From assembly GCA_043764555.1 (NCBI GenBank), contig JAYUKJ010000441.1:1-51747 (forward strand): 51,747 nt of DNA, in the 5' to 3' direction. Source of the DNA: Saprospiraceae bacterium (lineage in GTDB: Bacteria > Bacteroidota > Bacteroidia > Chitinophagales > Saprospiraceae). Of the stretch, positions 2,013 to 51,747 are shown one piece after another. Position numbers and translations under genes: made by a program. Below the pieces are notes generated by a model. That model saw only the letters and a program-made list of their open reading frames with translations, was not told the origin of the DNA and ran no database searches. Within the stretch, counting starts at the first letter, position 1. Each line of letters begins with the position of its first letter.

Positions 2013-2023
2013 CCCCTCAGTAT
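2013..2023 (+). repeat. Dispersed motif copy (core CCCCTCAGTAT)
   Basis: Exact 11-nt core. It lies between the terminator and the stop codon of the convergent DUF1016 gene. Confidence 0.8.
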
Positions 2024-2024
2024 T

Positions 2025-3035
2025 TTACTCAATTTCAAAGTCATCGGTATCTGGAATATTAAAACTTTCGAGTATTTCTGTCCATTTGCGTTGCAACAAG
2101 TCTTTATTTGGGAGTTGTGTTTGATAATCGGCGACTAAGGTTGGTGAAAGGCTACGGCTTAGGGCGTATTCAACAACGGTATCATCTTTTCCTTTGCAGA
2201 GTAAAATGCCAATGCTTGGGTTTTCGGCTTCGGTTTTTATGTCTCTGTCAAGTGCTTCCAAATAAAAATTGAGTTGCCCGAGATGTTTGGGTTTGAAACG
2301 TTCTATTTTTAGTTCAATAGCGACCAAGCACCGTAGTTGTCTATGATAAAATAACAAGTCAATGGCAAAGTCTTGATTGCCCACTTGCAACGGGTATTCT
2401 TCACCCATAAAGGCGAAATCACGCCCAAATTCTAACAAAAACTTCGTAATATTTTGAGCAATGGCTTGTTTCAAGTCTTTTTCACTATGTGGTTCGGGCA
2501 GATTCAACAATTCTAAAACGTAAGAATCTTTGAAGACATTGGTAATATCTTGCGGTAAAACTCTCGACACTGTCGAGAGTTTTGCATTACCGAGCATAAC
2601 GCGCTCAAAGTAAGACGCATCGATTTGTCTTACGAGTTCACGGTAGGACAAACGTTCTTTCAACGAGAGACGAAGATAAAATTCCTTTTCTCTTATGTCA
2701 TTACAAGAGGAGAAAATCAATGTATTGTGCGACCACGATAATTCTCGCACCAGCGGTGCGAGTTCTGGCTCGTCTTTGTAAGTCTCGTAAAATTGCTTCA
2801 TGCGCCAAAGATTTTGCGCTGAAAATCCTTTCACATTCGGCTCATTTTGAGCGATAAACGCGGCCAATTCTTTGATGATGGATTTTCCCCACGTTTTAGC
2901 CGTGATTTGCTGATGCAGATATTCACCGATAGTCCAATACAACAAGACTAATTCGTGATTTACTGCTTGGTATGCCCGTTTTTTAGCTTCGGCAATGAGC
3001 GTTGTGATGTGCGAAAACTGCGTTTGTAATGCCAT
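2025..3035 (-). CDS. PDDEXK nuclease, YhcG / DUF1016 family
   Basis: N-terminus MALQTQFSHITTLIAEAKKRAYQAVNHELVLLYWTIGEYL and the C-terminal ...DLLFYHRQLRCLVAIELK... (D...ExK) are typical of DUF1016. Start trimmed to Met13 of the ORF (ATG at 3035) because the longer ORF overlaps the rsmH end. Confidence 0.8.
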   Translation of the reverse strand: MALQTQFSHITTLIAEAKKRAYQAVNHELVLLYWTIGEYLHQQITAKTWGKSIIKELAAFIAQNEPNVKGFSAQNLWRMKQFYETYKDEPELAPLVRELSWSHNTLIFSSCNDIREKEFYLRLSLKERLSYRELVRQIDASYFERVMLGNAKLSTVSRVLPQDITNVFKDSYVLELLNLPEPHSEKDLKQAIAQNITKFLLEFGRDFAFMGEEYPLQVGNQDFAIDLLFYHRQLRCLVAIELKIERFKPKHLGQLNFYLEALDRDIKTEAENPSIGILLCKGKDDTVVEYALSRSLSPTLVADYQTQLPNKDLLQRKWTEILESFNIPDTDDFEIE

Positions 3036-3054
3036 AGTGATGTAGAATAATAGT

Positions 3055-3954
3055 TTATATTTTCTCCGCAATTCTTAATTTTGCCGACCTTGAACGTGGA
3101 TTCACCCGCGTTTCTTCCGCCGTTGGTTCAATTGGTTTTTTAGTAATCACTTTAAACGGGCGCGTGATATTGCCGTAGAAGTCCGTTTCTAAAGCGCCAT
3201 CAAAATTGCCCGATTTCATAAAATTTTTCACCAAACGGTCTTCAATTGAGTGAAAAGTAATGACCGAAAGGCGTCCGCCGGGCTTCAAAACGGCGAGCGA
3301 TTCTTTCAAAAAATCCTTCAAAGCGCCAATTTCATCGTTCACTTCCATCCGCAAAGCCTGAAAAACTTGCGACCGATAGCGCATTTTTTCGCCCATACTG
3401 AGGGGGTCCATAATTGCCAACAAATCATTGATATTTTTAAAGCGTTTGCCACTGCGGGCCTGCACAATTGCCTGTGCGAGAGTGCGTGAGTTGCGCACTT
3501 CGCCGTATTCGCTGAGGATGCGTTGCAGTTCCTCGGCGGGTTCTTTGTTGAGAATATCGGCGGCCGTTTTGCCCGCACTTTGATTCATCCGCATATCGAG
3601 TGCCGCATCGAAACGGTAAGAAAAACCGCGCTTGGCGTCGTCGAGTTGGTGCGAAGACACGCCTAAATCGGCCAAAATGCCGTCAACTGCGCGGACACCT
3701 TCAAGCCTTAGCAAGCGTTTTATGTCTCTAAAATTATGATTTACGAAGTGAAAACGCGGTTCGTCGGTCGGTAGATTGCGTCGGGCGTCGGCGTCTTGGT
3801 CGAAGCCGTAGAGTTTGCTATCGGCATCTAATTGGTTGAGAATCAAGCGACTGTGGCCGCCGCCGCCAAAAGTGGCATCGACGTAAACGCCAAAGGGTCG
3901 CAGGCTTAACGCCTCGACCGCTTCATTGAGTAAAACTGTTATATGATAATTCAT
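3055..3954 (-). CDS. rsmH: 16S rRNA (cytosine1402-N4)-methyltransferase RsmH (MraW)
   Basis: Full-length similarity to the RsmH family (VDATFGGGGHS SAM motif, ADLGVSSHQLD). Located downstream of mraZ. Confidence 0.95.
   Translation of the reverse strand: MNYHITVLLNEAVEALSLRPFGVYVDATFGGGGHSRLILNQLDADSKLYGFDQDADARRNLPTDEPRFHFVNHNFRDIKRLLRLEGVRAVDGILADLGVSSHQLDDAKRGFSYRFDAALDMRMNQSAGKTAADILNKEPAEELQRILSEYGEVRNSRTLAQAIVQARSGKRFKNINDLLAIMDPLSMGEKMRYRSQVFQALRMEVNDEIGALKDFLKESLAVLKPGGRLSVITFHSIEDRLVKNFMKSGNFDGALETDFYGNITRPFKVITKKPIEPTAEETRVNPRSRSAKLRIAEKI
3395..3409 (-). repeat. Dispersed motif copy inside rsmH coding sequence
   Basis: ATACTGAGGGGGTCC on the + strand. It is read in frame on the minus strand as ..MDPLSMG.. 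Confidence 0.8.
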
Positions 3955-4861: not shown

Positions 4862-4890
4862 TTTTTAGTAAAAAAAGTTTTCCACATTCT

Positions 4891-4925
4891 GAGAAAAGGG
4901 TCGTTGGGGCGAGAAAAGGGTCGTT
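4891..4925. repeat. 15-bp direct repeat GAGAAAAGGGTCGTT x2 with 5-bp spacer
   Basis: Exact copies at 4891-4905 and 4911-4925 in the mraZ upstream region. Confidence 0.9.
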
Positions 4926-5033
4926 TTAGACGCATTTTATAACCTATTTATGGTAGGAATGGTAGAAAGCTGCGCGTGAGCGTTTTTTTTTAATTTGAAA
5001 AAGGGAAAGGATAAAAAAGGTCTCAAAAGGGTT

Positions 5034-5823: not shown

Positions 5824-7224
5824 ATGAAAATCAACATCATCGCGCTTTGCGTCGCAACAATTGCTTTTTTAGGACCCCTCAGTATAAACGCTCAAAATGC
5901 GCCCGTCAAGGACGAAGACGCGCTTTTTATCCGTAAAATTTACGATGTCGCCTTGACTGAAAGCCGCGCTTATCCGTGGTTGTCAACGATGTGTACCGAA
6001 ATTGGCGGTCGTTTGAGTGGTTCCGACGGTGCGGCAAAAGCCGTGGAATGGACTAAGAAAATGCTCGATTCAAGCGGTTTTACGACCCGTTTGCAGCCGT
6101 GTTTGGTGACAAATTGGAAGCGCGGGGAGAAGGAAATTGTCAAAATTAAATCGAAAAAAGGCGATGTGAATTTGCGTTGCCTTGCCATCGGAAATTCGGT
6201 CGGAACGGGCAAAAAAGGCGTGGAAGCGGAGATAATTGAGGTAAAATCGCTCGACGAAGTAGATAATTTAGGCGAAAAAGTGAAAGGCAAAATCGTCTTT
6301 TACAACCGCCCGATGGATAAAAAACAAATCAATACGTTTGCCGCTTACGGTGGTGCGGGCGATCAACGGCGGGCGGGTGCTTCGCGGGCGGCGAAATACG
6401 GTGCTGTTGCCGTTTTGGTACGCTCGCTTTCGACCGAATTAGACGACCGTCCGCATACGGGTTCTTTGGCATATGACGAAAAATATCCGAAAATTGCGGC
6501 GGTTTGCCTCTCCACAAATGACGCCGAAAAGCTCTCAAAAGCGATTTATACTGAGGGGTCCTCTTTGAAAGCGTTTGTCAGAACGACGTGTGAAATGTTG
6601 CCCGATGCACCAAGTTTTAACGTGATTGGCGAGATAAAAGGCTCGGAATTTCCGAATGAAATCATCGTCGTTGGCGGTCATTTGGACAGTTGGGACGTGG
6701 CTCAAGGCGCGCACGACGATGGTGCGGGTTGTGTTCAAAGTATGGATGTTTTGAATTTGATGAAGCAAATGGGTTACAAGCCCAAGCGGACAATTCGCTG
6801 CGTTTTGTTTATGAATGAAGAAAACGGCATGAAAGGCGGCAATAAATACGCGGAAGAAGCGGCAAAATCGACTGAAAAGCACATTTTTGCCATCGAATCC
6901 GACGCGGGCGGTTTCACGCCGCGCGGCATTTCGTTTGAAGCGGACCCCTCAGTATTTGTCGAAAAATTTAAGAAAGTTGGCGCATGGGAAGACTTGCTAA
7001 AACCCTACGGCATCGAATTGAAAAAGGGCAGCAGTGGCGCTGATATTGGACCGATGAAACCGCAAAAATTCTTACTCGGTGGCTTAAATCCCGACTCGCA
7101 ACGCTACTTCGATTTTCACCACACGGAGTTCGATAAAATTGAATACGTCAATCGCCGTGAATTGGAATTAGGCGCTGGTGCAATGGCGTCTTTGGTCTAT
7201 TTAATCGACAAATATGGACTGTGA
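5824..7224 (+). CDS. Secreted M28-family zinc aminopeptidase
   Basis: Signal peptide MKINIIALCVATIAFLGPLSINAQ. M28 metal-ligand motifs GGHLDSWD, GAHDDGAG, FMNEENG. PA-like insert. Confidence 0.88.
   Translation: MKINIIALCVATIAFLGPLSINAQNAPVKDEDALFIRKIYDVALTESRAYPWLSTMCTEIGGRLSGSDGAAKAVEWTKKMLDSSGFTTRLQPCLVTNWKRGEKEIVKIKSKKGDVNLRCLAIGNSVGTGKKGVEAEIIEVKSLDEVDNLGEKVKGKIVFYNRPMDKKQINTFAAYGGAGDQRRAGASRAAKYGAVAVLVRSLSTELDDRPHTGSLAYDEKYPKIAAVCLSTNDAEKLSKAIYTEGSSLKAFVRTTCEMLPDAPSFNVIGEIKGSEFPNEIIVVGGHLDSWDVAQGAHDDGAGCVQSMDVLNLMKQMGYKPKRTIRCVLFMNEENGMKGGNKYAEEAAKSTEKHIFAIESDAGGFTPRGISFEADPSVFVEKFKKVGAWEDLLKPYGIELKKGSSGADIGPMKPQKFLLGGLNPDSQRYFDFHHTEFDKIEYVNRRELELGAGAMASLVYLIDKYGL
5872..5888 (+). repeat. 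Dispersed motif, exact 17-mer, inside the M28 signal-peptide codons
   Basis: GGACCCCTCAGTATAAA, translated as GPLSIN just before the AQ cleavage region. Confidence 0.9.
6545..6561 (-). repeat. Dispersed motif, exact 17-mer (reverse), inside the M28 CDS
   Basis: TTTATACTGAGGGGTCC, translated as IYTEGS. Confidence 0.9.
6942..6955 (+). repeat. Dispersed motif copy inside the M28 CDS
   Basis: GGACCCCTCAGTAT, translated as ADPSVF. The TAA of the full motif is replaced by TAT TTG. Confidence 0.85.
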
Positions 7225-7916: not shown

Positions 7917-8837
7917 TTAATTCGGTTCAACATTAATGATTAACGGCTTAATATCCTTACATTCTTTAGTTGATTTTTTAGCATAAAAAGTCGTTGTTTG
8001 AGTCGGGGCAACGAGCAAATTCGTCATTGGATTTTTGTCATTATTGGCGTCCGACAGTGAGGCATAAAAAGCGATGGGATTGCCCATTTCGCGCGTCAAA
8101 TTATTGTGGTCGAAGGCAAAATGTTCGATAAAGACGGCTTCACCTTTGGCAATTGTTCGCGCCGCCGTAACGACGTTTGGCGCTGAAATGGAATCCAACG
8201 AAATCGGCGCTGAAATCGTTTTCGTCGTGTCTGTAACGACTTGACAATAATAGCTACCCGCCGTTTTTATCGTGTAATTTTGCTTTGTTGCGCCCGCAAT
8301 CGGCTCTCCGTCCCGAAACCATTGGTATTTAGCGTTGATTTGTTGCGCACCGACCATCAAATTCAGCTCGTTGCTGCACATGGTTATCGGCACATTTATC
8401 GTCGCGTTGTCCGAATCATCCTCCGATTTTAGGCTGTTATTGGGCGTCGAATCCGCATCAGGCTCGTTCATCGCCGCAATTTCCGAGTAGCAATAGACGA
8501 CGCCTTCCGTTTTTATTTCAATCGTTAAAGTCAAGCTAACGGAGTCCGTCGTGGCGGGAATTGTGCCGATATACCACATTCCTGCGGTCGGGTCGTAGGC
8601 ATTTGGCGCGTTGTTGGAGACGTAAATTGCGCCATTCGGAATCGGCACATTGACCTTTACACCCGTGATTTTAGTGCGTTTTTGATTGAAAATAGTGATT
8701 TTTATCGCCATTTTATCGGTTCGCTTCGCCGTTTTTTTTGGCGTTGATAGGCGCAGCGAAAGGTCATTTTGAGCAAAAATACTGAGGGGTCCTATGAGGA
8801 AGGCAAGTAATATAAATGAGCTATTTTTTTTAAACAT
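7917..8837 (-). CDS. Secreted hypothetical protein (beta-rich, possible DUF11-like and Ig-like modules)
   Basis: Signal peptide MFKKNSSFILLAFLIGPLSIFAQ and an uninterrupted 306-aa ORF. The domain guess rests on ...VKVNVPIPNGAIYVSN...LTLTIEIK and QWFRDGEPIAGATKQNYTIKTAGSYYCQV. Confidence 0.6.
   Translation of the reverse strand: MFKKNSSFILLAFLIGPLSIFAQNDLSLRLSTPKKTAKRTDKMAIKITIFNQKRTKITGVKVNVPIPNGAIYVSNNAPNAYDPTAGMWYIGTIPATTDSVSLTLTIEIKTEGVVYCYSEIAAMNEPDADSTPNNSLKSEDDSDNATINVPITMCSNELNLMVGAQQINAKYQWFRDGEPIAGATKQNYTIKTAGSYYCQVVTDTTKTISAPISLDSISAPNVVTAARTIAKGEAVFIEHFAFDHNNLTREMGNPIAFYASLSDANNDKNPMTNLLVAPTQTTTFYAKKSTKECKDIKPLIINVEPN
8779..8792 (-). repeat. Dispersed motif copy inside signal-peptide codons
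   Basis: ATACTGAGGGGTCC on the + strand, read on the minus strand as GPLSI just before FAQ. Confidence 0.85.
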
Positions 8838-9854: not shown

Positions 9855-9871
9855 TTTATACTGAGGGGGTC
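9855..9871 (-). repeat. Dispersed motif copy
   Basis: TTTATACTGAGGGGGTC, 32 nt upstream of the 9002-9823 gene start. Confidence 0.85.
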
Positions 9872-11047: not shown

Positions 11048-11064
11048 TTTATACTGAGGGGTCC
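11048..11064 (-). repeat. Dispersed motif, exact 17-mer (reverse)
   Basis: TTTATACTGAGGGGTCC, intergenic. Confidence 0.9.
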
Positions 11065-11078
11065 TTCGGGAAATAAAA

Positions 11079-11114
11079 ACGTCTTGGAAGGTGGCTTTCA
11101 AGACGTTTTTTTTT
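11079..11114 (-). terminator. Terminator downstream of the LRR-Roc-COR-TIR gene
   Basis: ACGTCTTG / CAAGACGT stem with T/A runs on both sides, 6 nt after the stop at 11120. Confidence 0.6.
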
Positions 11115-11119
11115 GATTA

Positions 11120-14100
11120 TTATAAAGGTTTTTGAACATCATTAATTACTTTTTCAATACTTTCAACAACTTCTAACCAAGCTGTATCTCTATCGGAAAA
11201 AGTACTAACAGCAACACCTTTTGCGGGTAGTGCTTGTTGCTTAGCAAAATCCAATTTAGTCCATTGACATGGTTTTAAAATAATGGGAATAACCCGTGCT
11301 TTTCCATTTTTACGTTGTTCTTCGGCAAGCGGAATTTCATGATTCCAAATATAATCGGTATTAATAAAATTGGCACTTACTAAAAAAAGGATAATATCTG
11401 CTTCTTTTAACTTTGCTTTAATAGTATCATCCCATAATTCACCACCAATAATATGCCTATCATCCCAATTTGACACAATATTGCGCCTTCTTAAAGGCGA
11501 AAGATGGGTTATTAATTCATCTTTGAGTTCTCTGTCTTTTTTAGAGTAAGAGATAAATATGGATAATGGTTTATTACGTCTCAACATATCTCCTTTTACT
11601 TCAATCTTCTCGACATTAATTGTCGTTATTACCTTGTCATCTACGATAAAATCCAAAAGTGTTAAAATACTTTTATTCACTTTAGCCTTTTGCCTCAACG
11701 CTTTTGAAAAGGATACATTATCAAAATGCTGCTTTATTTTAAGGGTAGATATTTCTGAATTTAGTAGAGCTATATTCTTTTTAAGTGACTCCTGATTATT
11801 TTCGTCTGCCCATTGTGAAACAATATTCACTGCTTCTATGGCTTTATCATTTCCAATTAAAGCACGAACTTTTACTTTGAGTTCATCGAGTGTCATTAAT
11901 ACTTCCATTTTTTGTTTTTGAGAAATGCCTTCAATGTCTAAATTGTACAATTTGGAGAATGATAAGTTTGAATTAACGTTTAAAAGATCTTTAAAATCTT
12001 CGACAAAGAAACGCTTACCGTCGTATGTGAAATTAGTTTCATCTTTATATTTTTCTAATTCTGTTAAAGGTATAAATGTTTTTCCATCAGTAGAAACGGT
12101 AATTTTAGAAGAAGTGTGGTGGTTATTTTTAAATTCATTACGAATAGTATCTAACCATAATTTACGTTTTTTTCCCTTTACTTCTATACGAATAGTTTTA
12201 TTTTTTTCATTGGCTACAATTAAAGCATCAACCTCTTGCCCTTCCAACCAAATACCATAACGCCACATTTGATTAACTTTAGAAAGACTACGAGCACTGA
12301 TAATGAAACTCTGAATAATACCATAGTAGAACCACGTATATTCAAGTTGTAAAAAAATACTATCTTTATTGTCTTTAAAAATACGTAAAACTGGAGGAGG
12401 AGCAGTTTCTGACATTAAAGAAGGGGCAACCCATATTTTTTTATCAAAATCTCCTTGACCAGACTCTGACTCAAAACAAATTCCACATTGCTGCATATAT
12501 TGAATAAAATATTGCTTTTCTTCCAAAGTATAATCCATCCATTTTTCATTCAATTCATTTAAAGAAAAACGACCATCTCCTTTGCTAACGATTTTGTAGA
12601 AAATACTATTTCTATCAAAAAGTGTGTAAACTGCGTCAATCAACCATTCTTGGTCTAATATAATTTGTCCATTAAAAAGCTTTGCATCATAGAAAAAGAC
12701 ACCTGTTTCATGCAAATAATCTAAAAGAGTTAATTTAGAATCGTTATCCAAGTCGTAATGATTACAAAAAGCAAAAAAAACTTCAAGACCTAATTGTTTT
12801 AAACCAGAATTATCTCCTTGCTCTTTATTTTTATTATTAAGTTGTTGTAATTGGTGTATCATATGGCGCACGCTGTGCCAAGATTGAGGAATTAGTGGCT
12901 GTTCTTTTATCGTTTTTTTAGCAAAACCTACCAACTCTTCTTTCAAATAATTAATCCCACGTCCTGTTTTTGAATCAATATGAAATGAATCAAGTAGATT
13001 AAAAACCTTTTTCCACTCTTGATACTGAGGGGGTATCTCTTTTTCATTGCCTTCCTTTTCAATTTTGGATTGGACAAGAAAGATAGGTGACTTTGGATTC
13101 AATTGCTTGATATAAGATAACCAATAGACTTGATCATAATTTATAAACACGTGTTTTTCATTAGTTTCAGGGTTTATTCCAAAAGCTTCATGTTGATTAT
13201 TATTTTCTATATCCCAAACTAAAACAGTTACAGCCTCTGTTTTTAAAAATAAACGATGTGTTTCATGAAACAAATGTTGACCACCGAAATCCCAAATATT
13301 AAAAAGAATATCAGGGTCAGCTTTCCATGCTTTTAAGTAAACTGCGTGTGTTGTTTTCTGTGCCTCATCAAATTCTTCGCCTTGCAAGACACGCATTAAA
13401 CTTGTTTTACCTGCTCGACCATTGCCAACAAAAACAACTTTCAGCGTATCATTGATATGGCTTCCTTTTTTTAAGTCTTTGAAGTAATTGTAAAGATTAA
13501 AACAACAATTTTCCGAAGACTTGTCGTATATCTTTTTAGGTATATTTTTGATTGGATTACCACTTAAAAACAATATTTGCAGGTCTTTTAAATAATCAAA
13601 GATATTACTCGGAAAGTTTGTGATTTTATTGCTGTCTAATGATAGATGATTTAAATGAGGTAAGAATTTTAAAAAGGAGACATCAACTATCTTATTATAA
13701 ACCAACACCAGTCGAGTTAATTTAGTGAAATTTTTCAAAAATGAAGCATCAACAAGGTCAGTATAGCCAAGATTTAACTTAGTTAAATTTGTTAATGATA
13801 ACAAAGGAGTGAAGTCTTTAATTTTATTAACACGCAAGTCAATATCTTCTAATTGGGGAGAATCTTTTAAAAATGAAATATCTTCAATATGATTATCCCA
13901 TAAATTTAAAGTCTTTAATTCTGTTAAATATTTTAAATGGGAAAAATCTTTAAGTCTATTATCCCATAAATTTAATTTTTGTATTTTAGGCAAATGCTCA
14001 AATACAGAAATATCGCTAATTTTATTTCTGCCTAAATCTAATTCTTTTAGGTTCTTTAATGAGCCTAACCAATCAATATTCTCAATTTCATTTTGTTCCA

Positions 14101-14762: not shown

Positions 14763-14779
14763 TTTATACTGAGGAGTCC
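14763..14779 (-). repeat. Dispersed motif copy, GGAG variant
   Basis: TTTATACTGAGGAGTCC, intergenic. Confidence 0.8.
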
Positions 14780-14912: not shown

Positions 14913-14929
14913 GGACCCCTCAGTATAAA
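14913..14929 (+). repeat. Dispersed motif, exact 17-mer
   Basis: GGACCCCTCAGTATAAA, intergenic. Confidence 0.9.
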
Positions 14930-16136: not shown

Positions 16137-16152
16137 GACCCCTCAGTATAAA
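16137..16152 (+). repeat. Dispersed motif copy
   Basis: GACCCCTCAGTATAAA, 11 nt after a stop codon and 8 nt before a terminator hairpin. Confidence 0.9.
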
Positions 16153-17898: not shown

Positions 17899-18010
17899 GG
17901 ACCCCTCAGTATTTTTACATTTTTTCATTAAAAAAGCCTTTCAAACGTTCGTGTTTGAAAGGCTTTTTTAATGAAAAAATACCTAAAAAAGGCATTCATA
18001 CTGAGGGGTC
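17899..18010. mobile_element. MITE-like palindromic element (112 bp) bounded by inverted motif copies
   Basis: Left end GGACCCCTCAGTAT (17899-17912), right end CATACTGAGGGGTC (17997-18010). The interior is a ~30-bp-arm palindrome ...TTTTTTCATTAAAAAAGCCTTTCAAAC / GTTTGAAAGGCTTTTTTAATGAAAAAA. The element starts at the first nt after the TGA stop. Confidence 0.75.
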
Positions 18011-18818: not shown

Positions 18819-18964
18819 GAGGAATCCTCCGCATTTCTAATTTTTTCATCAAAAAGCCTTTCAAACGAACGTTTGAAAGGCTTTTTTAGTGAAAAAATGC
18901 CGAAAAAAGTCATTTCCCGAAGAAGAATCGGGATGCCGTGAAAACGTCATATACTGAGGGGTCC
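18819..18964. mobile_element. Second copy of the 17899-type MITE-like element, decayed left end plus ~38-bp internal insertion
   Basis: GAGGAATCCTCCGCATTTCTAATTTTTTCATCAAAAAGCCTTTCAAACGAACGTTTGAAAGGCTTTTTTAGTGAAAAAATGCCGAAAAAAGTCAT ... TATACTGAGGGGTCC aligns over ~95 bp with 17899-18010. Confidence 0.7.
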
Positions 18965-20067: not shown

Positions 20068-20082
20068 AGACCCCCTCAGTAT
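20068..20082 (+). repeat. Dispersed motif copy
   Basis: AGACCCCCTCAGTAT, intergenic. Confidence 0.85.
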
Positions 20083-20823: not shown

Positions 20824-20840
20824 GGACCCCTCAGTATAAA
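20824..20840 (+). repeat. Dispersed motif, exact 17-mer
   Basis: GGACCCCTCAGTATAAA, immediately followed by a hairpin. Confidence 0.9.
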
Positions 20841-21091: not shown

Positions 21092-21170
21092 GGACCCCTC
21101 AGTATAAACGCTCAAAAAGCCCTGCAAAAGTAAATTTTGCAAGGCTTTTCGGCATTTATACTGAGGGGTC
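21092..21170. mobile_element. MITE-like element (79 bp) bounded by inverted motif copies
   Basis: GGACCCCTCAGTATAAA (exact) ... imperfect hairpin GCCCTGCAAAAG/ATTTTGCAAGGC ... TTTATACTGAGGGGTC. Confidence 0.7.
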
Positions 21171-21410: not shown

Positions 21411-21423
21411 ATACTGAGGGGTC
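21411..21423 (-). repeat. Dispersed motif copy
   Basis: ATACTGAGGGGTC, intergenic. Confidence 0.85.
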
Positions 21424-22583: not shown

Positions 22584-22600
22584 GGACCCCTCAGTATAAA
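22584..22600 (+). repeat. Dispersed motif, exact 17-mer
   Basis: GGACCCCTCAGTATAAA between the two genes of the peroxidase pair. Confidence 0.9.
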
Positions 22601-23543: not shown

Positions 23544-23560
23544 TTTATACTGAGGGGTCC
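23544..23560 (-). repeat. Dispersed motif, exact 17-mer (reverse), sitting in the loop of a hairpin
   Basis: AAAAAGCGTTTT-ATACTGAGGGGTCCTCT-AAAACGCTTTTT. Confidence 0.9.
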
Positions 23561-24570: not shown

Positions 24571-24584
24571 ATACTGAGGGGGTC
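24571..24584 (-). repeat. Dispersed motif copy
   Basis: ATACTGAGGGGGTC, 45 nt upstream of the lipA start. Confidence 0.85.
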
Positions 24585-25375: not shown

Positions 25376-25392
25376 GGACCCCTCAGTATAAA
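25376..25392 (+). repeat. Dispersed motif, exact 17-mer
   Basis: GGACCCCTCAGTATAAA, intergenic. Confidence 0.9.
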
Positions 25393-26398: not shown

Positions 26399-26412
26399 GG
26401 ACCCCTCAGTAT
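26399..26412 (+). repeat. Dispersed motif copy
   Basis: GGACCCCTCAGTAT, intergenic, next to a terminator. Confidence 0.85.
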
Positions 26413-28723: not shown

Positions 28724-28736
28724 AATACTGAGGGGT
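28724..28736 (-). repeat. Dispersed motif copy
   Basis: AATACTGAGGGGT, intergenic. Confidence 0.8.
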
Positions 28737-31057: not shown

Positions 31058-31074
31058 GGACCCCTCAGTATAAA
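31058..31074 (+). repeat. Dispersed motif, exact 17-mer
   Basis: GGACCCCTCAGTATAAA, 17 nt after the stop at 31041. Confidence 0.9.
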
Positions 31075-33526: not shown

Positions 33527-33542
33527 TTTACACTGAGGGGTC
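33527..33542 (-). repeat. Dispersed motif copy, CAC variant
   Basis: TTTACACTGAGGGGTC, 19 nt upstream of the DUF423 gene start. Confidence 0.7.
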
Positions 33543-35099: not shown

Positions 35100-35717
35100 T
35101 TAATTTTTTAAATTTGATTCGGTATTTTTCTGCAAATCTAACAAAAAATCCAACAATTTGACCGTCGCTTTTCCTCGGTGTGAAACACGTCCTTTTGTCG
35201 TATTGTTCATTTCTGCGAAGGTTATTCTAAAACCTTTTGGTTGAAAAATTGGGTCGTAACCGAACCCCTCAGTACCAGAAGGTTTTACGCGAATTGTGCC
35301 TTCGCAAATCCCTTCAAAAAGGTGTTGTTTGCCGTCCAAAATCAAACAAATAATGGTGCGAAAACGGGCAGTTCTAACTTTAGAATCACTCATGTTTTTC
35401 AAAACAAAAGCAATATTCGCCAGTGGGTCGCGCGAACCTGAATAATGCGCAGTGTGAACACCCGGCTTGCCATCAAGTGCGTCAATTTCCAAGCCTGTAT
35501 CTTCCGAAAAACACGATTTACCGTAGGTTTTGTAGAGAAATTCGGCTTTTTCAATCGCATTCTCGACGATTGTTTCGTGCGTTTCTGGCAAATCGGTCGT
35601 GTGATTGACGGCGTCGCGCATCGTCGAAACTTGGATGTTGCCAAGGTTAGAATGTTTCAATACTTCGTTGATTTCGAGGACTTTGTGCGGATTGTTAGTT
35701 GCGAGTATGAGTTGCAT
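35100..35717 (-). CDS. rdgB: Non-canonical purine NTP pyrophosphatase (RdgB/HAM1 family)
   Basis: LATNNPHKVLE, ETG.T..ENA, GFGYDPIF, SHRG motifs. Confidence 0.92.
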   Translation of the reverse strand: MQLILATNNPHKVLEINEVLKHSNLGNIQVSTMRDAVNHTTDLPETHETIVENAIEKAEFLYKTYGKSCFSEDTGLEIDALDGKPGVHTAHYSGSRDPLANIAFVLKNMSDSKVRTARFRTIICLILDGKQHLFEGICEGTIRVKPSGTEGFGYDPIFQPKGFRITFAEMNNTTKGRVSHRGKATVKLLDFLLDLQKNTESNLKN

Positions 35718-37587: not shown

Positions 37588-37600
37588 GACCCCTCAGTAT
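37588..37600 (+). repeat. Dispersed motif copy
   Basis: GACCCCTCAGTAT between two hairpins. Confidence 0.85.
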
Positions 37601-38280: not shown

Positions 38281-38293
38281 AGACTCCTCAGTA
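38281..38293 (+). repeat. Dispersed motif copy, degenerate CTCC variant
   Basis: GACTCCTCAGTAG. Confidence 0.5.
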
Positions 38294-38379
38294 GTGCGCT
38301 CTTTCTAATCCATTAAAATGCCTAGCGAGGGCTTAAAAGCCGCTATGCATTAAGTTTTGCGTCTCCAAGAACTGAAGGC

Positions 38380-38468
38380 TACCCCTCAGTATTTTGGGCG
38401 TTTCAAGCGCAAAAAATTTCGCTTTTTCTTTCTTTTGGAGGAAAAAGCGGCTGGTATACTGAGGGGGT
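38380..38468. mobile_element. MITE-like element (89 bp) bounded by inverted motif copies
   Basis: TACCCCTCAGTAT ... GCGTTTCAAGCGC ... TATACTGAGGGGGT. Lies inside the spurious 38333-38599 ORF. Confidence 0.6.
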
Positions 38469-40015: not shown

Positions 40016-40028
40016 ACCCCCTCAGTAT
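40016..40028 (+). repeat. Dispersed motif copy
   Basis: ACCCCCTCAGTAT, 12 nt after the stop at 40004. Confidence 0.85.
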
Positions 40029-40232: not shown

Positions 40233-40248
40233 ACCCCCCTCAGTATAA
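40233..40248 (+). repeat. Dispersed motif copy
   Basis: CACCCCCCTCAGTATAA. Confidence 0.8.
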
Positions 40249-42504: not shown

Positions 42505-42572
42505 GGACCCCTCAGTATAAATGGGTTTTTTGCTCGTTTTTGAGTGGAAATGGGCGTTTATACTGAGGGGTC
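42505..42572 (+). mobile_element. 68-bp element bounded by inverted motif copies (left flank of the 42579-42941 gene)
   Basis: GGACCCCTCAGTATAAATGGGTTTTTTGCTCGTTTTTGAGTGGAAATGGGCGTTTATACTGAGGGGTC. Its interior is the reverse complement (a few mismatches) of the interior of 43104-43171. Confidence 0.8.
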
Positions 42573-42578
42573 TTATTT

Positions 42579-42941
42579 TTAATTTCGAGACGACAGATTC
42601 TGTTCCCTTTTTAAGAGGGCAAAATGACCCATCAAAGCAATGCGTTCATCTATCGTCAGGATCTCCATTAATAATGTCTCTAATTGTTTAGACGTCGGTG
42701 GTTTTCCACCCGTGAAAGCCATAAATTTTGCGAGTGCGACCTTTGCCAATTTTTCATCATACCATTCAATCGCTTTGTCAGCCATGCCGTTCAACAAAAC
42801 AAGCTGTTCTTCAGGTGTCAAAAAGGTCTTATAATTTTCTGCGCCGTGGATGTCTTTCAAAGCGTCAAATTTTCGGAGAACGCGCTCGCGTTCAGATTGA
42901 GCGCGTGGACTATTGTCGAGTGGGTCAGTTATTTCTGGCAT
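42579..42941 (-). CDS. Hypothetical protein (120 aa)
   Basis: Clean ORF with no recognisable domain, flanked on both sides by the 68-bp element. Confidence 0.5.
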   Translation of the reverse strand: MPEITDPLDNSPRAQSERERVLRKFDALKDIHGAENYKTFLTPEEQLVLLNGMADKAIEWYDEKLAKVALAKFMAFTGGKPPTSKQLETLLMEILTIDERIALMGHFALLKREQNLSSRN

Positions 42942-43103: not shown

Positions 43104-43171
43104 GGACCCCTCTGTATAAACGCCCTTTTTCACTCAAATCGAGCAAAAAAGGGCGTTTATACTGAGGGGTC
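43104..43171 (-). mobile_element. 68-bp element, inverted copy (right flank of the 42579-42941 gene)
   Basis: GGACCCCTCTGTATAAACGCCCTTTTTCACTCAAATCGAGCAAAAAAGGGCGTTTATACTGAGGGGTC. The interior forms the ACGCCCTTTTT / AAAAAGGGCGT hairpin. Confidence 0.8.
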
Positions 43172-43201
43172 TCTCATTTTGAAACACAATCGTTTCAACG
43201 T

Positions 43202-44891: not shown

Positions 44892-44907
44892 GGACCCCTC
44901 AGTATAA
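44892..44907 (+). repeat. Dispersed motif copy
   Basis: GGACCCCTCAGTATAA, same orientation as the copy 203 bp upstream. Confidence 0.9.
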
Positions 44908-45411: not shown

Positions 45412-45428
45412 GGACTCCTCAGTATAAA
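45412..45428 (+). repeat. Dispersed motif copy, CTCC variant
   Basis: GGACTCCTCAGTATAAA, starting 2 nt after the TGA stop. Confidence 0.85.
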
Positions 45429-45437
45429 ATCGAAAAA

Positions 45438-45477
45438 ACCGCTTTGCAAAACGAATGTTTGCAAAGCGGTTTTTTTG
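45438..45477. terminator. Bidirectional terminator between convergent genes
   Basis: 13-bp stem ACCGCTTTGCAAA / TTTGCAAAGCGGT with A6 and T7 flanks. Confidence 0.85.
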
Positions 45478-45480: not shown

Positions 45481-46287
45481 TTATTTTGACACATCCGCTG
45501 CTTGTTTTTGATAGGGATGATTGGGCGTATTTTTGATTTTTTCAAACAATAAACGCGCTTTGTCGCCTTGTTTTTCGGACAGTGCCAAAGCCAAATACCA
45601 TTCTGCTTTTGGTTGCCATTCTGTGTCCCTCAACTGGCTCAATTGGGTGAGAATAGGGACGGCTTTTTCCGCTTGTTCGGTCGCCAAATAGGCATTTGCT
45701 TGAAAAAATAGGGCATCATACTGAGGGGTCCTAATTTTTTCAAAATAGACCAACGCGGCTTCATATTCGCCGTTATCGTAGAGCGAAAATGCTTTTTCAA
45801 TATCACTTTTTTGGGTATTTTCACGCACCGTCGGCTGGGCATAGTTGCGATAAGGTCTGAATGTAGCGGCATAAGTACGCTCCGTTTCTGCCGTTTTTTT
45901 CTGCCGAATAAAATACATGGTTGCGCCACAAATGCCGAGTAATAAAGTTGCCGCAATTGCCAACTGTTGCATGAAAGAAACACCCTTTGGCGCTTTAGAC
46001 CTAAGGGGTCTTTTTGAGACAAATGGCGTTTTAGTATCGATTGATTTAACCGCTGATTTAATCACTTTTCCTGCTTGCAATGTCGCTTCTTCTGCCTGCA
46101 ACAAGGTTTTTAAGTTGCCGTCGCCGAAGGCTTTTATCGCCACAACTGCTGCTTCATACCGCTTCACTTCGGCTGCAAAATCGGCATCCGAAAGGCGTTG
46201 ATTGAAGGTCATTAACTCGCTGGTTGTCAATGTGTTATCGAGTTTTTTCTCAATCAGCAATTGGTCTATTTCCGTTAGCTTGTACAT
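45481..46287 (-). CDS. Putative anti-sigma factor: N-terminal cytoplasmic domain, one TM, TPR-like outer domain
   Basis: Starts 13 nt after the ECF sigma gene. TM segment LAIAATLLLGICGATMYFI. C-terminal TPR-like helices (YDNGEYEAALVYFEKI..., ANAYLATEQAEKAVPIL). Confidence 0.55.
   Translation of the reverse strand: MYKLTEIDQLLIEKKLDNTLTTSELMTFNQRLSDADFAAEVKRYEAAVVAIKAFGDGNLKTLLQAEEATLQAGKVIKSAVKSIDTKTPFVSKRPLRSKAPKGVSFMQQLAIAATLLLGICGATMYFIRQKKTAETERTYAATFRPYRNYAQPTVRENTQKSDIEKAFSLYDNGEYEAALVYFEKIRTPQYDALFFQANAYLATEQAEKAVPILTQLSQLRDTEWQPKAEWYLALALSEKQGDKARLLFEKIKNTPNHPYQKQAADVSK
45718..45731 (-). repeat. Dispersed motif copy inside the anti-sigma CDS
   Basis: ATACTGAGGGGTCC, read on the minus strand as RTPQYD. 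Confidence 0.85.
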
Positions 46288-47386: not shown

Positions 47387-47402
47387 TTTATACTGAGGGG
47401 TC
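47387..47402 (-). repeat. Dispersed motif copy
   Basis: TTTATACTGAGGGGTC, 58 nt upstream of the S8 peptidase start. Confidence 0.9.
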
Positions 47403-48867: not shown

Positions 48868-48918
48868 AAAAGTCGAATACAGTTTCTTAGAGATGTGTCA
48901 TAAAATTAGAACAACCGC

Positions 48919-48948
48919 AAGGGTTATTTTCATCTGAGAATAACCCTT
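48919..48948 (+). other. Hairpin between the S8 and TPR-CHAT genes
   Basis: 10-bp perfect stem AAGGGTTATT / AATAACCCTT with a 10-nt loop and no clear T-run. Confidence 0.5.
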
Positions 48949-48965
48949 AATTACTTTCTTAAAAA

Positions 48966-51747
48966 ATGCGATATTTTACTATTATTCTATTAATTATTGT
49001 CATGTCTGCTTGCTCAAATCAAAGCAGTACACTTAGTAATGATATACGCCTTGATGAGTCCATCCAAAGGCTCAGTGAACTTAGTCTTAAACAATCTAAA
49101 GACACCTTACTGCTTAATTTTGCTTTGACGGAGGCTTATCAAGTTGCTGATAAATATAAACATCGAACGCATGATTCTTTAATCGCCATAACAACACGTC
49201 TTTTAGGTAATGCTTATTTAGCTACGAAGCCTCAAATAGCGCGTTTTCATTACGAAAAAGGTTTGCGGTTTGGCACAAGGTATTTGAGCCTAAATGAAGA
49301 TATAATAACCCGTTTATATCGGAATATGGCACTAACATATTACATTAATCAAGACTACAAAACGGCATTAATCTATTATGATTCCGTTAAAATTACGAAG
49401 GATGATAGCACGGCGCAAGTCATGAAAATTAGTACTTTAATGGACGTGGCAGAATGTTACAAAAATATCAATGACTACAAATCAGCTGAAAAACTTTTTA
49501 AAGAAGCAGAGCCGTTAGCAGAAAAATGGCAGAAAAATACGTCTTTAGCCAGTTTTTATAACCAATATTCAAGTTGCCTTAGAAAATTAAAAAAGTTTCA
49601 AAATGCCCTCCAAAAGGCTCAAAAAGGCATGGTTGTCTTACAAAAAGGGGCAGTTAAGACATCTTTTTCTAAATATGATTCGCTTATTTTTGCCAATATT
49701 TTGTACAGTATGGGCTATACTTTAAATGATTCAGGTGCTTACGAGGCAGCTGAACCTTACTATATCAAAGCTATGTCCATCTATCGAAAACAAAATAATT
49801 GGGATAATTATAAAAGAGGACTTACCAATTTAGGATTCTTGTACCGCTTTAATAAAAAATTTGGAGAAGCTGAAAGCGTTTTAACCGAAGGCATTAATCT
49901 GTCGAGTCAATCGGCATTAGATGATAAAAGCATTGATTTAAAAGCCAGTTTTTACGTCAATCGAAGCGAGGTTTATTTGGAAACAAAACAATATAAAAAA
50001 GCCATTGCCGACCACGATTCAGCGATTCATTTTTTTACGCTTTACGGGAAAAAACCGTCATTAACTGCCATAATGATGCAAGCGCGACCCGTTTTGCTGT
50101 CTGTTTTAAGCGATAAAGCAAAAGCGTCTATTGCTTTAGCCGAAAATGGCTCTGATACTGAGGGGTATCAAAAAGCTTTAAAACTAACCCAACAAAGCAT
50201 ACAATTAGCCGATGATATTCGCGCCGATTATTTCTCCGATGAGGCTAAATTGACTTTGGCCAATGACATCAAACCCGCGCTGGAAAAAGCAATTTCGGTC
50301 TGTCAAAAATTGTATCAAAAGACCAACGATAAACAATATTTAGAACAAGCGTTTGGCTTTGTGGAATACAGCCGAAGCATGGTTTTATATGAAAATGCCC
50401 GACTCGACAATCAATTACCATCGAATTTAAAGGCAGAAAATGAAGCATTGAAGAAGAAGGAAGCGGCTCTGATTGCTAATAATAACGTCGAAGATTTGCA
50501 AAATTATTTGCGCTTAAAAAGGCAATTTAGAGAAAAAATAAAAGCCTTAAATCGCAATCAATTAGCCACCATTTCTGAATTGAAAACCGCCTTAATTAAA
50601 GACGATAAAACGGCGTTAATTGAGTTTTTTGTGGGCGATTCAGCCGTTTTTGTTTTTACTTTAGTCAAAAATGATTTGACATTAATCGAATTAAAAAAGC
50701 AAAAAGATTTTGATAAACAAATAGAAAATTTGCGTCAACACATTACGCAAGCCAATCCTGTACGTAATGCGGAAGTATTTGAAAAACAAGCGAAAAATCT
50801 TTACAACACGTTGTTAATCAACACTATAGCGCAATTGCCAACGACCGTCAATCAATTAATTATGGCGCCCGACGGTGTTTTAAATTATTTACCTTTTGAA
50901 ATTCTAATAAAAGAGGACCCCTCAGTATATTTGAAGAATTCCCAAAATTTTAAGGATTCCAATGGAGGAAAACCGTCAAAAGATTCATCATTCATCGTTC
51001 ATCACTCATCATTCCAAAAAGTAGATTTTTTAATTAAAAACTATCAAATTTCTTACGCTTATTCTGCCAATTTATTGTTGGAACAAAAGCGGATTAAAAC
51101 GGAATCGGCGCCCAAATTATTCGCAGGTTTTGCGGCAAAATATGAGAATAAAGACACGACTTACGCTTACGCCGACGTAAGCCGTGCCGTCCTCACGCGA
51201 GACGGGGCGTATGAGTTGAAAGGGGCAACGGAAGAAGTAAAAACCATCAGCGATTTGGTCGGCGGACAAGCCTTCGTCAACGAGTTCGCTACTGAGGAGT
51301 CCTTTAAAAAAGAAGCCAATCAGTACCGAATTTTGCACTTCGCTATGCACTCCTTGACGGACGATAAAGACCCGTCGTTAAGCAAATTGCTCTTCACGCT
51401 CACGCCAAAAGACACCACAAACGACAACGATTTGACTGCCGCCGAACTCTACGCCACGTCCTTAAAGGCCGACCTCGCCGTCCTAAGTGCTTGTAACACA
51501 GGCTTTGGTACATTAAATAAAGGGGAAGGTGTGATGAGTCTCGCTCGTGCTTTCACCTACGCGGGCGTCCCGTCAACGGTCACGAGTCTTTGGAAAGTTC
51601 CTGATAGGGAGACGCGTGAAATCATGGTGGACTTCTACAAAAACCTAAAATCAGGCATGACTAAAGACGCCGCCTTGCGCCAAGCAAAACTCACTTATTT
51701 GGAAAATACGCCTGAATCCATAGCTGCAAATCCCTATTTTTGGGCAG
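48966..51747 (+). CDS. Lipoprotein TPR-repeat / CHAT-domain (caspase-like) protein, 3'-truncated by the window edge; absent from the ORF track
   Basis: Hand translation gives MRYFTIILLIIVMSACSNQ (lipobox-like), ~8 TPR-like helical pairs, then CHAT hallmarks: LIMAPDGVLNYLPFE, ILHFAMHS (His) and ADLAVLSACNTG (Cys), SLWKV.D. No stop codon from 48966 to 51747. Confidence 0.85.
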   Translation, partial: MRYFTIILLIIVMSACSNQSSTLSNDIRLDESIQRLSELSLKQSKDTLLLNFALTEAYQVADKYKHRTHDSLIAITTRLLGNAYLATKPQIARFHYEKGLRFGTRYLSLNEDIITRLYRNMALTYYINQDYKTALIYYDSVKITKDDSTAQVMKISTLMDVAECYKNINDYKSAEKLFKEAEPLAEKWQKNTSLASFYNQYSSCLRKLKKFQNALQKAQKGMVVLQKGAVKTSFSKYDSLIFANILYSMGYTLNDSGAYEAAEPYYIKAMSIYRKQNNWDNYKRGLTNLGFLYRFNKKFGEAESVLTEGINLSSQSALDDKSIDLKASFYVNRSEVYLETKQYKKAIADHDSAIHFFTLYGKKPSLTAIMMQARPVLLSVLSDKAKASIALAENGSDTEGYQKALKLTQQSIQLADDIRADYFSDEAKLTLANDIKPALEKAISVCQKLYQKTNDKQYLEQAFGFVEYSRSMVLYENARLDNQLPSNLKAENEALKKKEAALIANNNVEDLQNYLRLKRQFREKIKALNRNQLATISELKTALIKDDKTALIEFFVGDSAVFVFTLVKNDLTLIELKKQKDFDKQIENLRQHITQANPVRNAEVFEKQAKNLYNTLLINTIAQLPTTVNQLIMAPDGVLNYLPFEILIKEDPSVYLKNSQNFKDSNGGKPSKDSSFIVHHSSFQKVDFLIKNYQISYAYSANLLLEQKRIKTESAPKLFAGFAAKYENKDTTYAYADVSRAVLTRDGAYELKGATEEVKTISDLVGGQAFVNEFATEESFKKEANQYRILHFAMHSLTDDKDPSLSKLLFTLTPKDTTNDNDLTAAELYATSLKADLAVLSACNTGFGTLNKGEGVMSLARAFTYAGVPSTVTSLWKVPDRETREIMVDFYKNLKSGMTKDAALRQAKLTYLENTPESIAANPYFWA
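50155..50166 (-). repeat. Dispersed motif copy inside the TPR-CHAT CDS
   Basis: ATACTGAGGGGT, translated as DTEGY. Confidence 0.75.
50915..50929 (+). repeat. Dispersed motif copy inside the TPR-CHAT CDS
   Basis: GGACCCCTCAGTATA, translated as EDPSVY. It opens a ~110-nt low-complexity in-frame stretch. Confidence 0.85.
51290..51302 (-). repeat. Dispersed motif copy, GGAG variant, inside the TPR-CHAT CDS
   Basis: TACTGAGGAGTCC, translated as ATEESF. Confidence 0.65.

Follow-up and report, generated by a model that had tools for sequence, protein, structure and literature searches.

A recurrent 11-bp word with genomic features typical of DNA uptake signals in uncultured Saprospiraceae

The Window and the Word

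In a contig of a Saprospiraceae bacterium (JAYUKJ010000441.1; in the following called the window, which is the whole stretch of 51.7 kb that was analysed) a short word recurs with a density of about one copy per kb. The core of the word is the 11-mer CCCCTCAGTAT, with the reverse complement ATACTGAGGGG, and in its longer form it is the 17-mer GGACCCCTCAGTATAAA.

According to Pfam annotation, the window is an ordinary chromosomal stretch of the Bacteroidota (Saprospiraceae). Its genes include those for proteins with sorting domains of the type IX secretion system, for MraZ and RsmH, a KpsF-like protein, LipA, UDG and RdgB/Ham1, and further those for GroES and GroEL, OmpA-like proteins, a LytTR two-component pair and peptidases. 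No transposase or integrase is found among the Pfam annotations of the window, and Rfam families have zero matches anywhere in it.

The copies of the word are given below from left to right, with "core" for the exact 11-mer, "17-mer" for a core in its longer form, "variant" for a copy with a deviating core, and ORF for open reading frame. Loci of relatives, to be introduced further on, carry L-numbers.

2013..2023 (+): core CCCCTCAGTAT in the convergent spacer between the genes for M43 peptidase and YhcG, directly past a terminator hairpin
3395..3405 (-): core in rsmH, sense, reading D-P-L-S-M; orthologous copy in L007, L011 and L012, synonymous codons without the motif in L008
5037..5047 (-): variant ACCCTCAGTAT upstream of mraZ; perfect orthologous copy in L009, where the spacer has otherwise diverged
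5875..5885 (+): 17-mer in the signal-peptide region of the M28 peptidase gene, G-P-L-S-I-N
6548..6558 (-): 17-mer in the M28 peptidase gene, antisense, I-Y-T-E-G-S
6945..6955 (+): core in the M28 peptidase domain, sense, D-P-S-V-F
8779..8789 (-): core at the 5' end of a DUF11 ORF
9858..9868 (-): core in the spacer between two hydrolase genes
11051..11061 (-): 17-mer at the 5' end of a hydrolase ORF, adjoining a terminator-like hairpin at 11075-11110
13022..13032 (-): core in the LRR-Roc-COR-TIR gene, the sole copy in that low-GC gene of 3.5 kb
14766..14776 (-): variant CTCCTCAGTAT in a divergent spacer
14916..14926 (+): 17-mer in a divergent spacer
16139..16149 (+): core, intergenic, followed by a strong hairpin
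17902..17912 (+): core abutting the stop codon of the Wzy_C gene, with an inverted partner at 17998 and a strong hairpin in between
17998..18008 (-): core, the inverted partner of 17902
18951..18961 (-): core, 6 nt off the end of the KpsF-like gene
20072..20082 (+): core, intergenic
20827..20837 (+): 17-mer, 5 nt off a bidirectional terminator-like hairpin at 20842-20875
21095..21105 (+): 17-mer, left arm of the inverted pair 21092-21171 around a hairpin
21158..21168 (-): core, right arm of the inverted pair 21092-21171
21411..21421 (-): core, intergenic, upstream of the end of the CCP_MauG gene
22587..22597 (+): 17-mer, intergenic
23547..23557 (-): 17-mer in the MbnP/LipA spacer
24571..24581 (-): core in the LipA/Uma2 spacer
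25379..25389 (+): 17-mer, intergenic
26402..26412 (+): core, intergenic, 20 nt off a terminator-like hairpin at 26432-26464
27541..27551 (+): variant CTCCTCAGTAT in a histidine-kinase gene, antisense
28725..28735 (-): core in a divergent spacer
30431..30441 (+): core in the LRR-WG gene; orthologous or paralogous copies in L099 at 279 and 2704
31061..31071 (+): 17-mer in a convergent spacer
33530..33540 (-): variant CCCCTCAGTGT in the DUF423/UDG spacer, within a 44-bp segment missing from L099
34429..34439 (-): core at the 3' end of a 226-aa ORF; orthologous copy in L099 at 7273
35265..35275 (+): variant CCCCTCAGTAC in the Ham1/RdgB gene, antisense; the same variant at the orthologous position 7650 of L099
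36544..36554 (+): 17-mer in a divergent spacer, followed by a hairpin
37590..37600 (+): core past the RNaseT/ExoX gene, with strong hairpins on its flanks
38284..38293 (+): variant CTCCTCAGTA, within AGACTCCTCAGTA
38382..38392 (+): core, left arm of the inverted pair 38379-38469
38456..38466 (-): core, right arm of the inverted pair 38379-38469
40018..40028 (+): core, 14 nt past the OMP beta-barrel gene
40236..40246 (+): core upstream of groES, matched in L099 at 9200 by an orthologous copy whose flanks are conserved
42505..42573 (no strand): inverted doublet of about 70 bp with cores at 42508 (+) and 42560 (-), offset 52 nt, downstream of the groEL terminator; long hairpin
43104..43172 (no strand): second inverted doublet of about 70 bp, with variant CCCCTCTGTAT at 43107 (+) and core at 43159 (-), offset 52 nt; interior like that of 42505-42573 and of the doublets in L008
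44692..44702 (+): 17-mer in a divergent spacer
44895..44905 (+): core in a divergent spacer
45415..45425 (+): variant CTCCTCAGTAT, 5 nt past a stop codon and 6 nt before a bidirectional terminator-like hairpin with a 20-bp stem at 45431-45477
45718..45728 (-): core in a 268-aa ORF, sense
47390..47400 (-): core in the divergent spacer upstream of the S8 peptidase gene
50155..50165 (-): core at the un-annotated right end of the window
50918..50928 (+): core at the un-annotated right end of the window
51290..51299 (-): variant CTCCTCAGTA, within GGACTCCTCAGTA

Frequency, Spacing, and Placement

The exact 11-mer occurs 43 times in the window, 22 times on the plus strand and 21 times on the minus strand, and the exact 17-mer occurs 13 times. 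When one mismatch is allowed, the number of copies is 50, and the two CTCCTCAGTA copies (38284, plus; 51290, minus) bring the total to 52. The number of 11-mers expected from Markov models of orders 1 to 4, with both strands considered, is between 0.004 and 0.12, and shuffles of the window that preserve its dinucleotides contain zero copies of either the 11-mer or the 17-mer.

The word had been noticed in a first-pass annotation of the window, and its counts of 43 and 13 are reproduced exactly by the recount. A comparison with a Markov model had been proposed there, and the over-representation is borne out by the 43 copies observed against 0.004-0.12 expected. The coordinates given there all hold within 3 nt, being a mixture of starts of the 17-mer and starts of the 11-mer, and the total of about 51, variants included, is raised to 52 by the recount, CCCCTCAGTAC at 35265 (+) in the Ham1 gene having been overlooked. 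A five-member sub-family, GGACTCCTCAGTA, had also been described; it consists of four exact members and one AGACTCCTCAGTA, with the CTCCTCAGTA variant shared as claimed.

The distances between copies are more regular than expected by chance, with a coefficient of variation of 0.73 as compared to 0.97 +/- 0.13 in simulations (P ~0.01). A tally of strand balance gives 24 copies on the plus and 20 on the minus strand, and the cumulative GC skew climbs monotonically across the window. Since the strands are balanced in spite of the steadily rising skew, the word lacks polarity, and signals of the Chi or KOPS (FtsK-orienting polar sequence) type are ruled out, as the first-pass annotation had also concluded from the balance of the two orientations.

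Coding DNA makes up 77% of the window, and about 70% of the copies reside in the approximately 22% that is non-coding. The share of copies in ORFs is thus about 25-30%, so that the word is under-represented in coding DNA. Copies in spacers are found between convergent, divergent, and tandem genes, and in either orientation relative to the genes that adjoin them. The tolerance of the word inside genes, asserted earlier, applies to about 12-15 truly coding copies (at least 12), exemplified by GPLSIN, IYTEGS, and DPSVF in the M28 peptidase and DPLSM in RsmH. Codon-usage scoring shows the M28 peptidase ORF to be coding throughout, the 17-mer being translated as GPLSIN in the signal peptide and, from the other strand, as IYTEGS. 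Since the word is indifferent both to strand and to the direction of transcription, it acts at the level of DNA.

Core and Flanks

A consensus was drawn from an alignment of all copies in the window. It consists of an upstream flank, AAAA.AGGA, a near-invariant 11-bp core, and then AAA (or TTT), followed on the 3' side by a triplet rich in S at positions +15 to +17 and a tetranucleotide of only A or T at +19 to +22. Further positions rich in A/T occur around +30-33, +39-42, +51-54, and +63. In the lineage of the window the core is extended to AAAAA-GGA-core-AAA. The A/T tracts accordingly recur with a phase of about 10.5 bp, on the 3' side of the core only, and span about 50-60 bp; the conservation of the individual positions drops to background outside about -9 to +27. 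The 17-mer GGACCCCTCAGTATAAA has no internal dyad, which makes the unit non-palindromic, and hairpins are formed only by doublets.

In a Fourier spectrum of the A/T content 3' of the core, the highest peak lies at a period of 10.5 bp, and its power is 0.098 for the mostly intergenic, extended copies, as compared to a maximum of 0.029 among 300 control sets. When only coding copies are considered, the power at 10.5 bp is 0.043, with a mean of 0.012 and a maximum of 0.025 for the controls. The phasing is thus present also around purely intragenic copies, and this implies that the signal in the flank reflects one and the same DNA-level constraint in all lineages.

Distribution among Relatives

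Loci from relatives at increasing distance were obtained with homologues of RsmH and GroEL as anchors. The closest homologues of both proteins are annotated as belonging to Saprospiraceae metagenome-assembled genomes (MAGs). The loci compare as follows.

L008 (RsmH 95% identical): 9 copies of CCCCTCAGTA in 11.5 kb
L007 (RsmH 91% identical): 12 copies in 20.9 kb
L099 (GroEL 97% identical): 20 copies in 21.6 kb
L011 (RsmH 76% identical): 26 copies in 19.7 kb
L012 (RsmH 72% identical): 21 copies in 20.9 kb
L096 (RsmH ~68% identical): 7 copies in 12.4 kb
L014 (RsmH 71% identical): 0 copies of CCCCTCAGTA, 17 copies of CCCCCCAGTA
L013, L095, L097, and L098 (more distant RsmH): 0 copies of CCCCTCAGTA or CCCCCCAGTA

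The first-pass annotation had named an excess outside the window as the test of its observation, and the carriers among the relatives do contain the core at 0.5-1.3 copies per kb. L008, L009, and L010 are 99.9% identical, and there is therefore no information on polymorphism to be gained among these three. Among the matches listed for the 17-mer is a Saprospiraceae MAG from glacier-fed streams, and altogether eight independent loci or genomes carry the main word. Both words are absent from 80 metagenome loci of Bacteroidota, 941 kb in total, that were anchored on LipA (65-84% identity); as these lack the word, their sole use is that of a negative control.

L014 alone uses the dialect CCCCCCAGTAT, which has zero copies in every other carrier. 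The flanks in L014 are in the style of the window, rich in A upstream and with AAA, S, and a T-tract downstream. The word, in short, characterizes a clade, within which there is at least one dialect that excludes the main form and deviates from it at a single position of the core.

Two styles of usage can be distinguished. The extended and mostly intergenic motif is found in the window, in L008-L010, in the loci of the glacier-stream MAG, and in the dialect lineage L014. A bare (A/C)CCCCCTCAGTAT, mostly intragenic, is found in L007, L099, L011, L012, and L096. The share of copies in ORFs is 65% for the uptake signal sequence (USS) of H. influenzae, 49% for that of A. pleuropneumoniae, and 34.5% for the DNA uptake sequence (DUS) of N. 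meningitidis (PMC2817400), and the two styles mirror this published spread. The 25-30% of the window come near to the value for N. meningitidis.

Three contigs of about 1 kb (L001, L002, and L005, from JAYTMF01, "Flavobacteriales bacterium GFS_3499") contain the word with typical extended flanks, and have probably been mis-binned as Flavobacteriales. Other words recur in other loci. In L070 (Ga0163151_10000477, 20.9 kb) the 9-mer CTGAACCAA has 11 copies, most of them with T or A as the next base, against about 0.2 expected; its copies are dispersed, in both orientations, and have unrelated flanks, and it may be another word like an uptake signal in a different lineage of Bacteroidota. A weaker excess is seen in L098 (20.9 kb), where the 8-mer CATTGCCA occurs 11 times, dispersed and mainly in genes.

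Origin and Persistence of Copies

In the lineages with the bare word, most copies are inside called genes: 23 of 26 in L011, 18 of 21 in L012, and 11 of 12 in L007. The word occurs in both orientations in plus-strand genes of L011, and in L011, L012, and L007 five of the six possible reading frames are used. The sixth, TAC TGA GGG, holds a stop codon and is absent.

To exemplify how copies come and go, consider the sequence DPLSM in RsmH. It is encoded by GAC CCC CTC AGT ATG, which contains the word, in the window, in L007, and in L011. In L012 the same site encodes TPLSI, again with the word (ACC CCC CTC AGT ATT), whereas L008, the closest relative, encodes DPLSM without the word (GAC CCG CTT AGC ATG). 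The conserved PSV of ftsI is similarly written CCC TCA GTA in L011, CCT TCG GTT in L012, and CCG TCG GTG in L014, and in murE two sites with the word are common to L011 and L012, where a motif-free outgroup has different residues. In the codon alignments of all three genes the word is thus gained or lost by point changes, often synonymous ones, with no insertions or deletions. This excludes transposition as the origin of those coding copies.

Orthologous copies are also kept in intergenic spacers that have diverged, namely upstream of mraZ (window and L009) and upstream of groES (40236 and L099 9200). At the single candidate for an insertion or deletion, copy 33530 in the comparison between the window and L099, no target-site duplication is found. 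Downstream of groEL the synteny between the window and L099 breaks directly past the shared terminator, and the alignment there is for this reason uninformative.

Hairpins and Inverted Pairs

When hairpins with a stability of -19 kcal/mol or better are sought within 60 nt of a copy, they are found on the 3' side of about 12 of 50 copies and on the 5' side of 5 of 50. Several of the adjacent hairpins resemble bidirectional terminators, a role that is predicted. The first-pass annotation had described the copies as typically lying 5-25 nt from a terminator hairpin; the association is real, with the qualification that it holds for about one quarter to one third of the copies only.

The window has five inverted pairs. 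Two of them, the doublets at 42505-42573 and 43104-43172, form hairpins of about 70 bp that look perfect and have an offset of 52 nt; the remaining pairs have offsets of 63, 74, and 96, and most copies are singlets. Together with two doublets in L008 (1515/1567 and 8811/8862) there are four doublets in two genomes with offsets of 51-52 nt, and the interiors of the four are similar, TTTTTTGCTC.TTTTGA. The interiors of the two doublets in the window are reverse complements of each other, and between these doublets lies a 120-aa ORF (42579-42941, minus strand) with no Pfam match, so that the layout resembles that of a small cassette.

Other Features of the Window and of Related Loci

The gene for the LRR-Roc-COR-TIR protein (1172 aa, 11120-14638, minus strand) encodes a ROCO-type GTPase with a C-terminal TIR domain. 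Its GC content is 0.30, and it may be a horizontally acquired gene for defence or signalling. There are two genes for putative endonucleases of the Uma2 family (PF05685), at 24680-25243 and 35786-36514. The latter is missing from the syntenic spacer between Ham1 and RNaseT in L099 and constitutes a gene-sized insertion or deletion; L008 also ends in an Uma2 gene. In DNA that is putatively recent, the word occurs once in the LRR-Roc-COR-TIR gene and zero times in the Uma2 gene absent from L099, these numbers being very small.

Direct repeats of GTGGTAAAAAGTGGTAAGATGTGG upstream of mraZ (about 4870-4960, minus strand) are kept in L009 and L007, and look like a MraZ operator. The spacer between mraZ and rsmH has a long block rich in ACACAC and an invariant segment of about 45 nt (ACCACTCACACGGTGAAACACTTAAAAATTTCTTACAATTATTTT) that is common to the window and L007-L010. 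Short AT-rich tandem arrays (heptamers ATTTCAA and AAATTCC, repeats of GTCTGAAA) are found in the spacers around DUF423 and UDG, at about 33550-33700 and 34390-34420 in the window and about 6470-6550 in L099, with copy numbers that differ between the two. Two repeats are unrelated to the word: a 22-bp tandem repeat, GAGCGCAGCGAGCAAACACAGA, in about 12 copies in L050 (7224-7480), and two local palindromic clusters of AATCCGTA repeats in L097 (1941-2057 and 11133-11217).

Discussion

The word is very probably a genome-wide recognition word, read at the level of DNA and driven by point mutation, and not a mobile element. Among the three options that the first-pass annotation had named with no choice between them, the likeness to DUS and USS is backed by every genomic test that was run: density, balance of orientations, even spacing, synonymous point changes, and avoidance of the frame with a stop codon, and further the conservation within a clade with a dialect, the one-sided phased A/T tracts, and the inverted pairs at terminators. 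Inverted pairs and adjacency to terminators are described for both DUS and USS (PMC2817400; bioRxiv 10.1101/2025.10.24.684340), and the diagnostic features of DNA uptake sequences in general have been published (PMC2817400; PMC3458573; bioRxiv 10.1101/2025.10.24.684340).

It is the match between this published signature and the combined features of the word that suggests a function in uptake. The word is, on these grounds, probably a DNA uptake signal of an uncultured Saprospiraceae clade, or a functionally equivalent signal for recognition of self-DNA. To our knowledge, no other process yields this combination of features. With somewhat better than even confidence, one may go further and regard it as a third, independently evolved family of uptake signals, the first outside the Proteobacteria, in uncultured Saprospiraceae of freshwater and glacier streams. 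The marks of this family would be a core of 11 bp, phased A/T tracts that extend unusually far to one side, and two or more dialects that exclude each other, and it would imply sequence-selective natural transformation.

The proposed mechanism is as follows. A surface-exposed or periplasmic part of a DNA uptake machine would bind the core, and the phased A/T tracts would ease bending or kinking of the duplex when uptake starts. Fragments with the word would be imported preferentially and then recombine homologously with the chromosome. Biased uptake in combination with recombination would constitute a molecular drive, by which mutations that create the word are fixed and mutations that destroy it are removed. 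New copies, for their part, arise by point substitution where the sequence tolerates them, be it in the spacers between genes, in signal peptides, at synonymous codon positions, or in variable parts of proteins. Some inverted pairs would secondarily have been turned into terminator hairpins, as with DUS and USS. A shift of receptor specificity in one lineage would have caused its genome to be re-written to the dialect CCCCCCAGTAT, in which core position 5 has C in place of T.

Several observations weigh against a role in uptake. Competence genes are lacking among the Pfam annotations of the window, this being a statement about the window only, and the carriers are uncultured and known only from metagenomes. 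The intergenic enrichment in the lineage of the window exceeds that in Neisseria, and the word has about five phased tracts as compared to two in USS. The sharp contrast in style between close relatives (L007 and L099 on the one hand, the window and L008 on the other) requires a rapid turnover. Singlets in the extended style share a loose 3' pattern (SSC, WWWW, often GCTCAAAA) that reaches to about +27, copy 33530 falls in a 44-bp insertion or deletion relative to L099, and the doublets with a fixed offset and similar interiors are more suggestive of a small repeated element than of an origin by independent point mutations.

The alternative that survives best, while still being unlikely, is that the word serves an abundant and sequence-specific chromosomal protein (nucleoid-associated, or engaged in condensin loading, repair, or self-marking) as its target, and is kept by a cytoplasmic function; a protein site had been the third option of the first-pass annotation. 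The phased A/T tracts would then mean that the DNA is wrapped or bent by the protein, and the dialect that protein and site have co-evolved, an account to which only a small probability is given. Such a site would be a DNA-level, orientation-free, and evenly spaced signal, and clade-specific with a dialect; the one-sided helical phasing over about 50-60 bp suggests bending or wrapping, and the Pfam annotation of the window links no competence gene to the carriers. The difficulty is that selection would have to maintain each site separately, with a site in roughly every kb and some of them at synonymous positions of housekeeping genes, for which a genome-wide drive accounts more easily. All of the listed features, moreover, are published diagnostics of DUS and USS. 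We know of no nucleoid protein with an exact 11-bp non-palindromic site in thousands of copies per genome.

It is improbable that the extended intergenic copies are units like the repetitive extragenic palindromic (REP) sequences and their hairpin-forming doublets (REPINs), or like miniature inverted-repeat transposable elements (MITEs), with the doublet of about 70 bp as the replicative form, the singlets as its decayed halves, and a REP-associated tyrosine transposase (RAYT) or other transposase elsewhere in the genome. The extragenic location of about 70% of the copies in the window, the four doublets of 51-52 nt offset with their similar interiors in two genomes, the pattern shared by singlets to about +27, and the presence of copy 33530 in a 44-bp insertion or deletion would be explained by such units. 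But the unit is non-palindromic, its conserved part measures only about 17-27 bp, and a target-site duplication is not found; the copies in genes, which number at least 12 in the window and make up about 90% of the total in L011, L012, and L007, came about by substitutions, with no insertions or deletions; and the A/T phasing is present around coding copies too. The Pfam matches of the window and the called genes of the motif-bearing loci, about 190 kb in all, include neither Y1_Tnp (RAYT) nor another transposase. A MITE as the general explanation, which the first-pass annotation had offered in the form of a Correia-like family, is rejected, there being no conserved interior beyond about -9/+27 and coding copies being present with no insertions or deletions around them. 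What is left of that proposal is a possible small layer of REPIN-like amplification in the extended style, confined to the few doublets of about 70 bp and laid on top of a process of point mutation. Among 2.9 million viral contigs of IMG/VR only one match to the word is found, which speaks against mobile units and also against a phage-borne repeat, a reading that is rejected.

A footprint of sequence-context bias in repair or gene conversion, like that of very short patch (VSP) repair, or a Chi-like signal for a recombination nuclease, is very unlikely: it would let the word accumulate genome-wide by point mutation in coding and non-coding DNA, possibly in a single clade, but the known VSP-type biases concern short and usually palindromic methylation contexts and the known Chi sites measure only 5-8 nt and have a strong strand polarity along the replichore, whereas the present core has 11 nt, its flanks are phased, and the strands are balanced 24/20 under a rising GC skew. 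An RNA element or terminator motif is rejected, given both orientations relative to genes, both strands inside genes, and the zero Rfam matches; a promoter is ruled out by the copies in convergent spacers and in coding DNA.

A search of the literature for the word on either strand returned coincidences with eukaryotic primers and nothing bacterial, and the view of the first-pass annotation that it is not a described repeat family stands. No described motif was found in the literature on uptake sequences in Bacteroidetes or Saprospiraceae, and up to late 2025 Neisseriaceae and Pasteurellaceae were regarded as the only families with uptake sequences (bioRxiv 10.1101/2025.10.24.684340). Within the Bacteroidota there is a precedent for natural transformation: that of Riemerella columbina favours its own DNA, but a k-mer search there gave only A-rich words of low complexity and no motif (PMC7965970).

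If the word is an uptake signal, then it probably represents a third family of such signals, set apart by its occurrence in a new phylum, by the unrelated sequence of its core, and by phased tracts that reach further. It would follow that self-preferring transformation evolves repeatedly, that natural transformation in environmental Bacteroidota can be predicted from the sequence alone, and that a receptor exists in a phylum where no uptake signal had been found. The word would also provide comparative material for the debate on whether uptake signals are due to drive or to selection. The pair of dialects, CCCCTCAGTAT and CCCCCCAGTAT, offers a handle for discovery of the receptor through phylogenetic profiling of proteins that co-vary with them. 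In practical terms, the word can be used as a taxon-specific marker in metagenomic binning, where it already flags contigs that are probably mis-binned, and its addition to transforming DNA could improve the genetic tools for these bacteria.

Comparison with Known Systems

Among the systems closest to the word is the USS of Pasteurellaceae (Hin-type AAGTGCGGT, Apl-type ACAAGCGGT). In both cases a short core that is not a palindrome recurs roughly once per kb and in either orientation, accompanied on one side by A/T-rich tracts in helical phase; many reading frames are used, with avoidance of those that create stop codons, and the copies originate by point mutation. They also share sub-types within a family and pairs that act as terminators, a role that for the Saprospiraceae word is only predicted. 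The Saprospiraceae core is unrelated and longer (11 nt), its host belongs to the Bacteroidota and not to the Gammaproteobacteria, the copies in the lineage of the window are far more intergenic, and the word is known from sequence alone.

The DUS of Neisseriaceae (GCCGTCTGAA, AT-DUS) also occurs about once per kb, mostly in intergenic DNA with about one third of the copies in ORFs, often as inverted repeats in or beside terminators, and with single-base dialects that are mutually exclusive between lineages. Its sequence is unrelated to that of the Saprospiraceae word and lacks the phased A/T flank; its receptor is the minor pilin ComP, and its host is a Betaproteobacterium as opposed to a member of the Bacteroidota.

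With the RAYT-mobilised REP and REPIN elements, the word shares shortness, great abundance, a mostly extragenic location in the lineage of the window, the use of both orientations, and inverted doublets whose halves keep a constant distance and fold into long hairpins. In contrast to them, the single Saprospiraceae unit is not a palindrome, many of its coding copies come from synonymous substitutions, no RAYT is seen in the window and the motif-bearing loci, and the same core is mainly intragenic in sister lineages. HIP1 (GCGATCGC) of cyanobacteria, finally, is an 8-bp palindrome linked to methylation. Like the present word, it is short, clade-specific, present in enormous excess in coding as well as non-coding DNA, and of point-mutation origin; the Saprospiraceae word differs from it in being an 11-bp non-palindrome with asymmetric, phased flanks.

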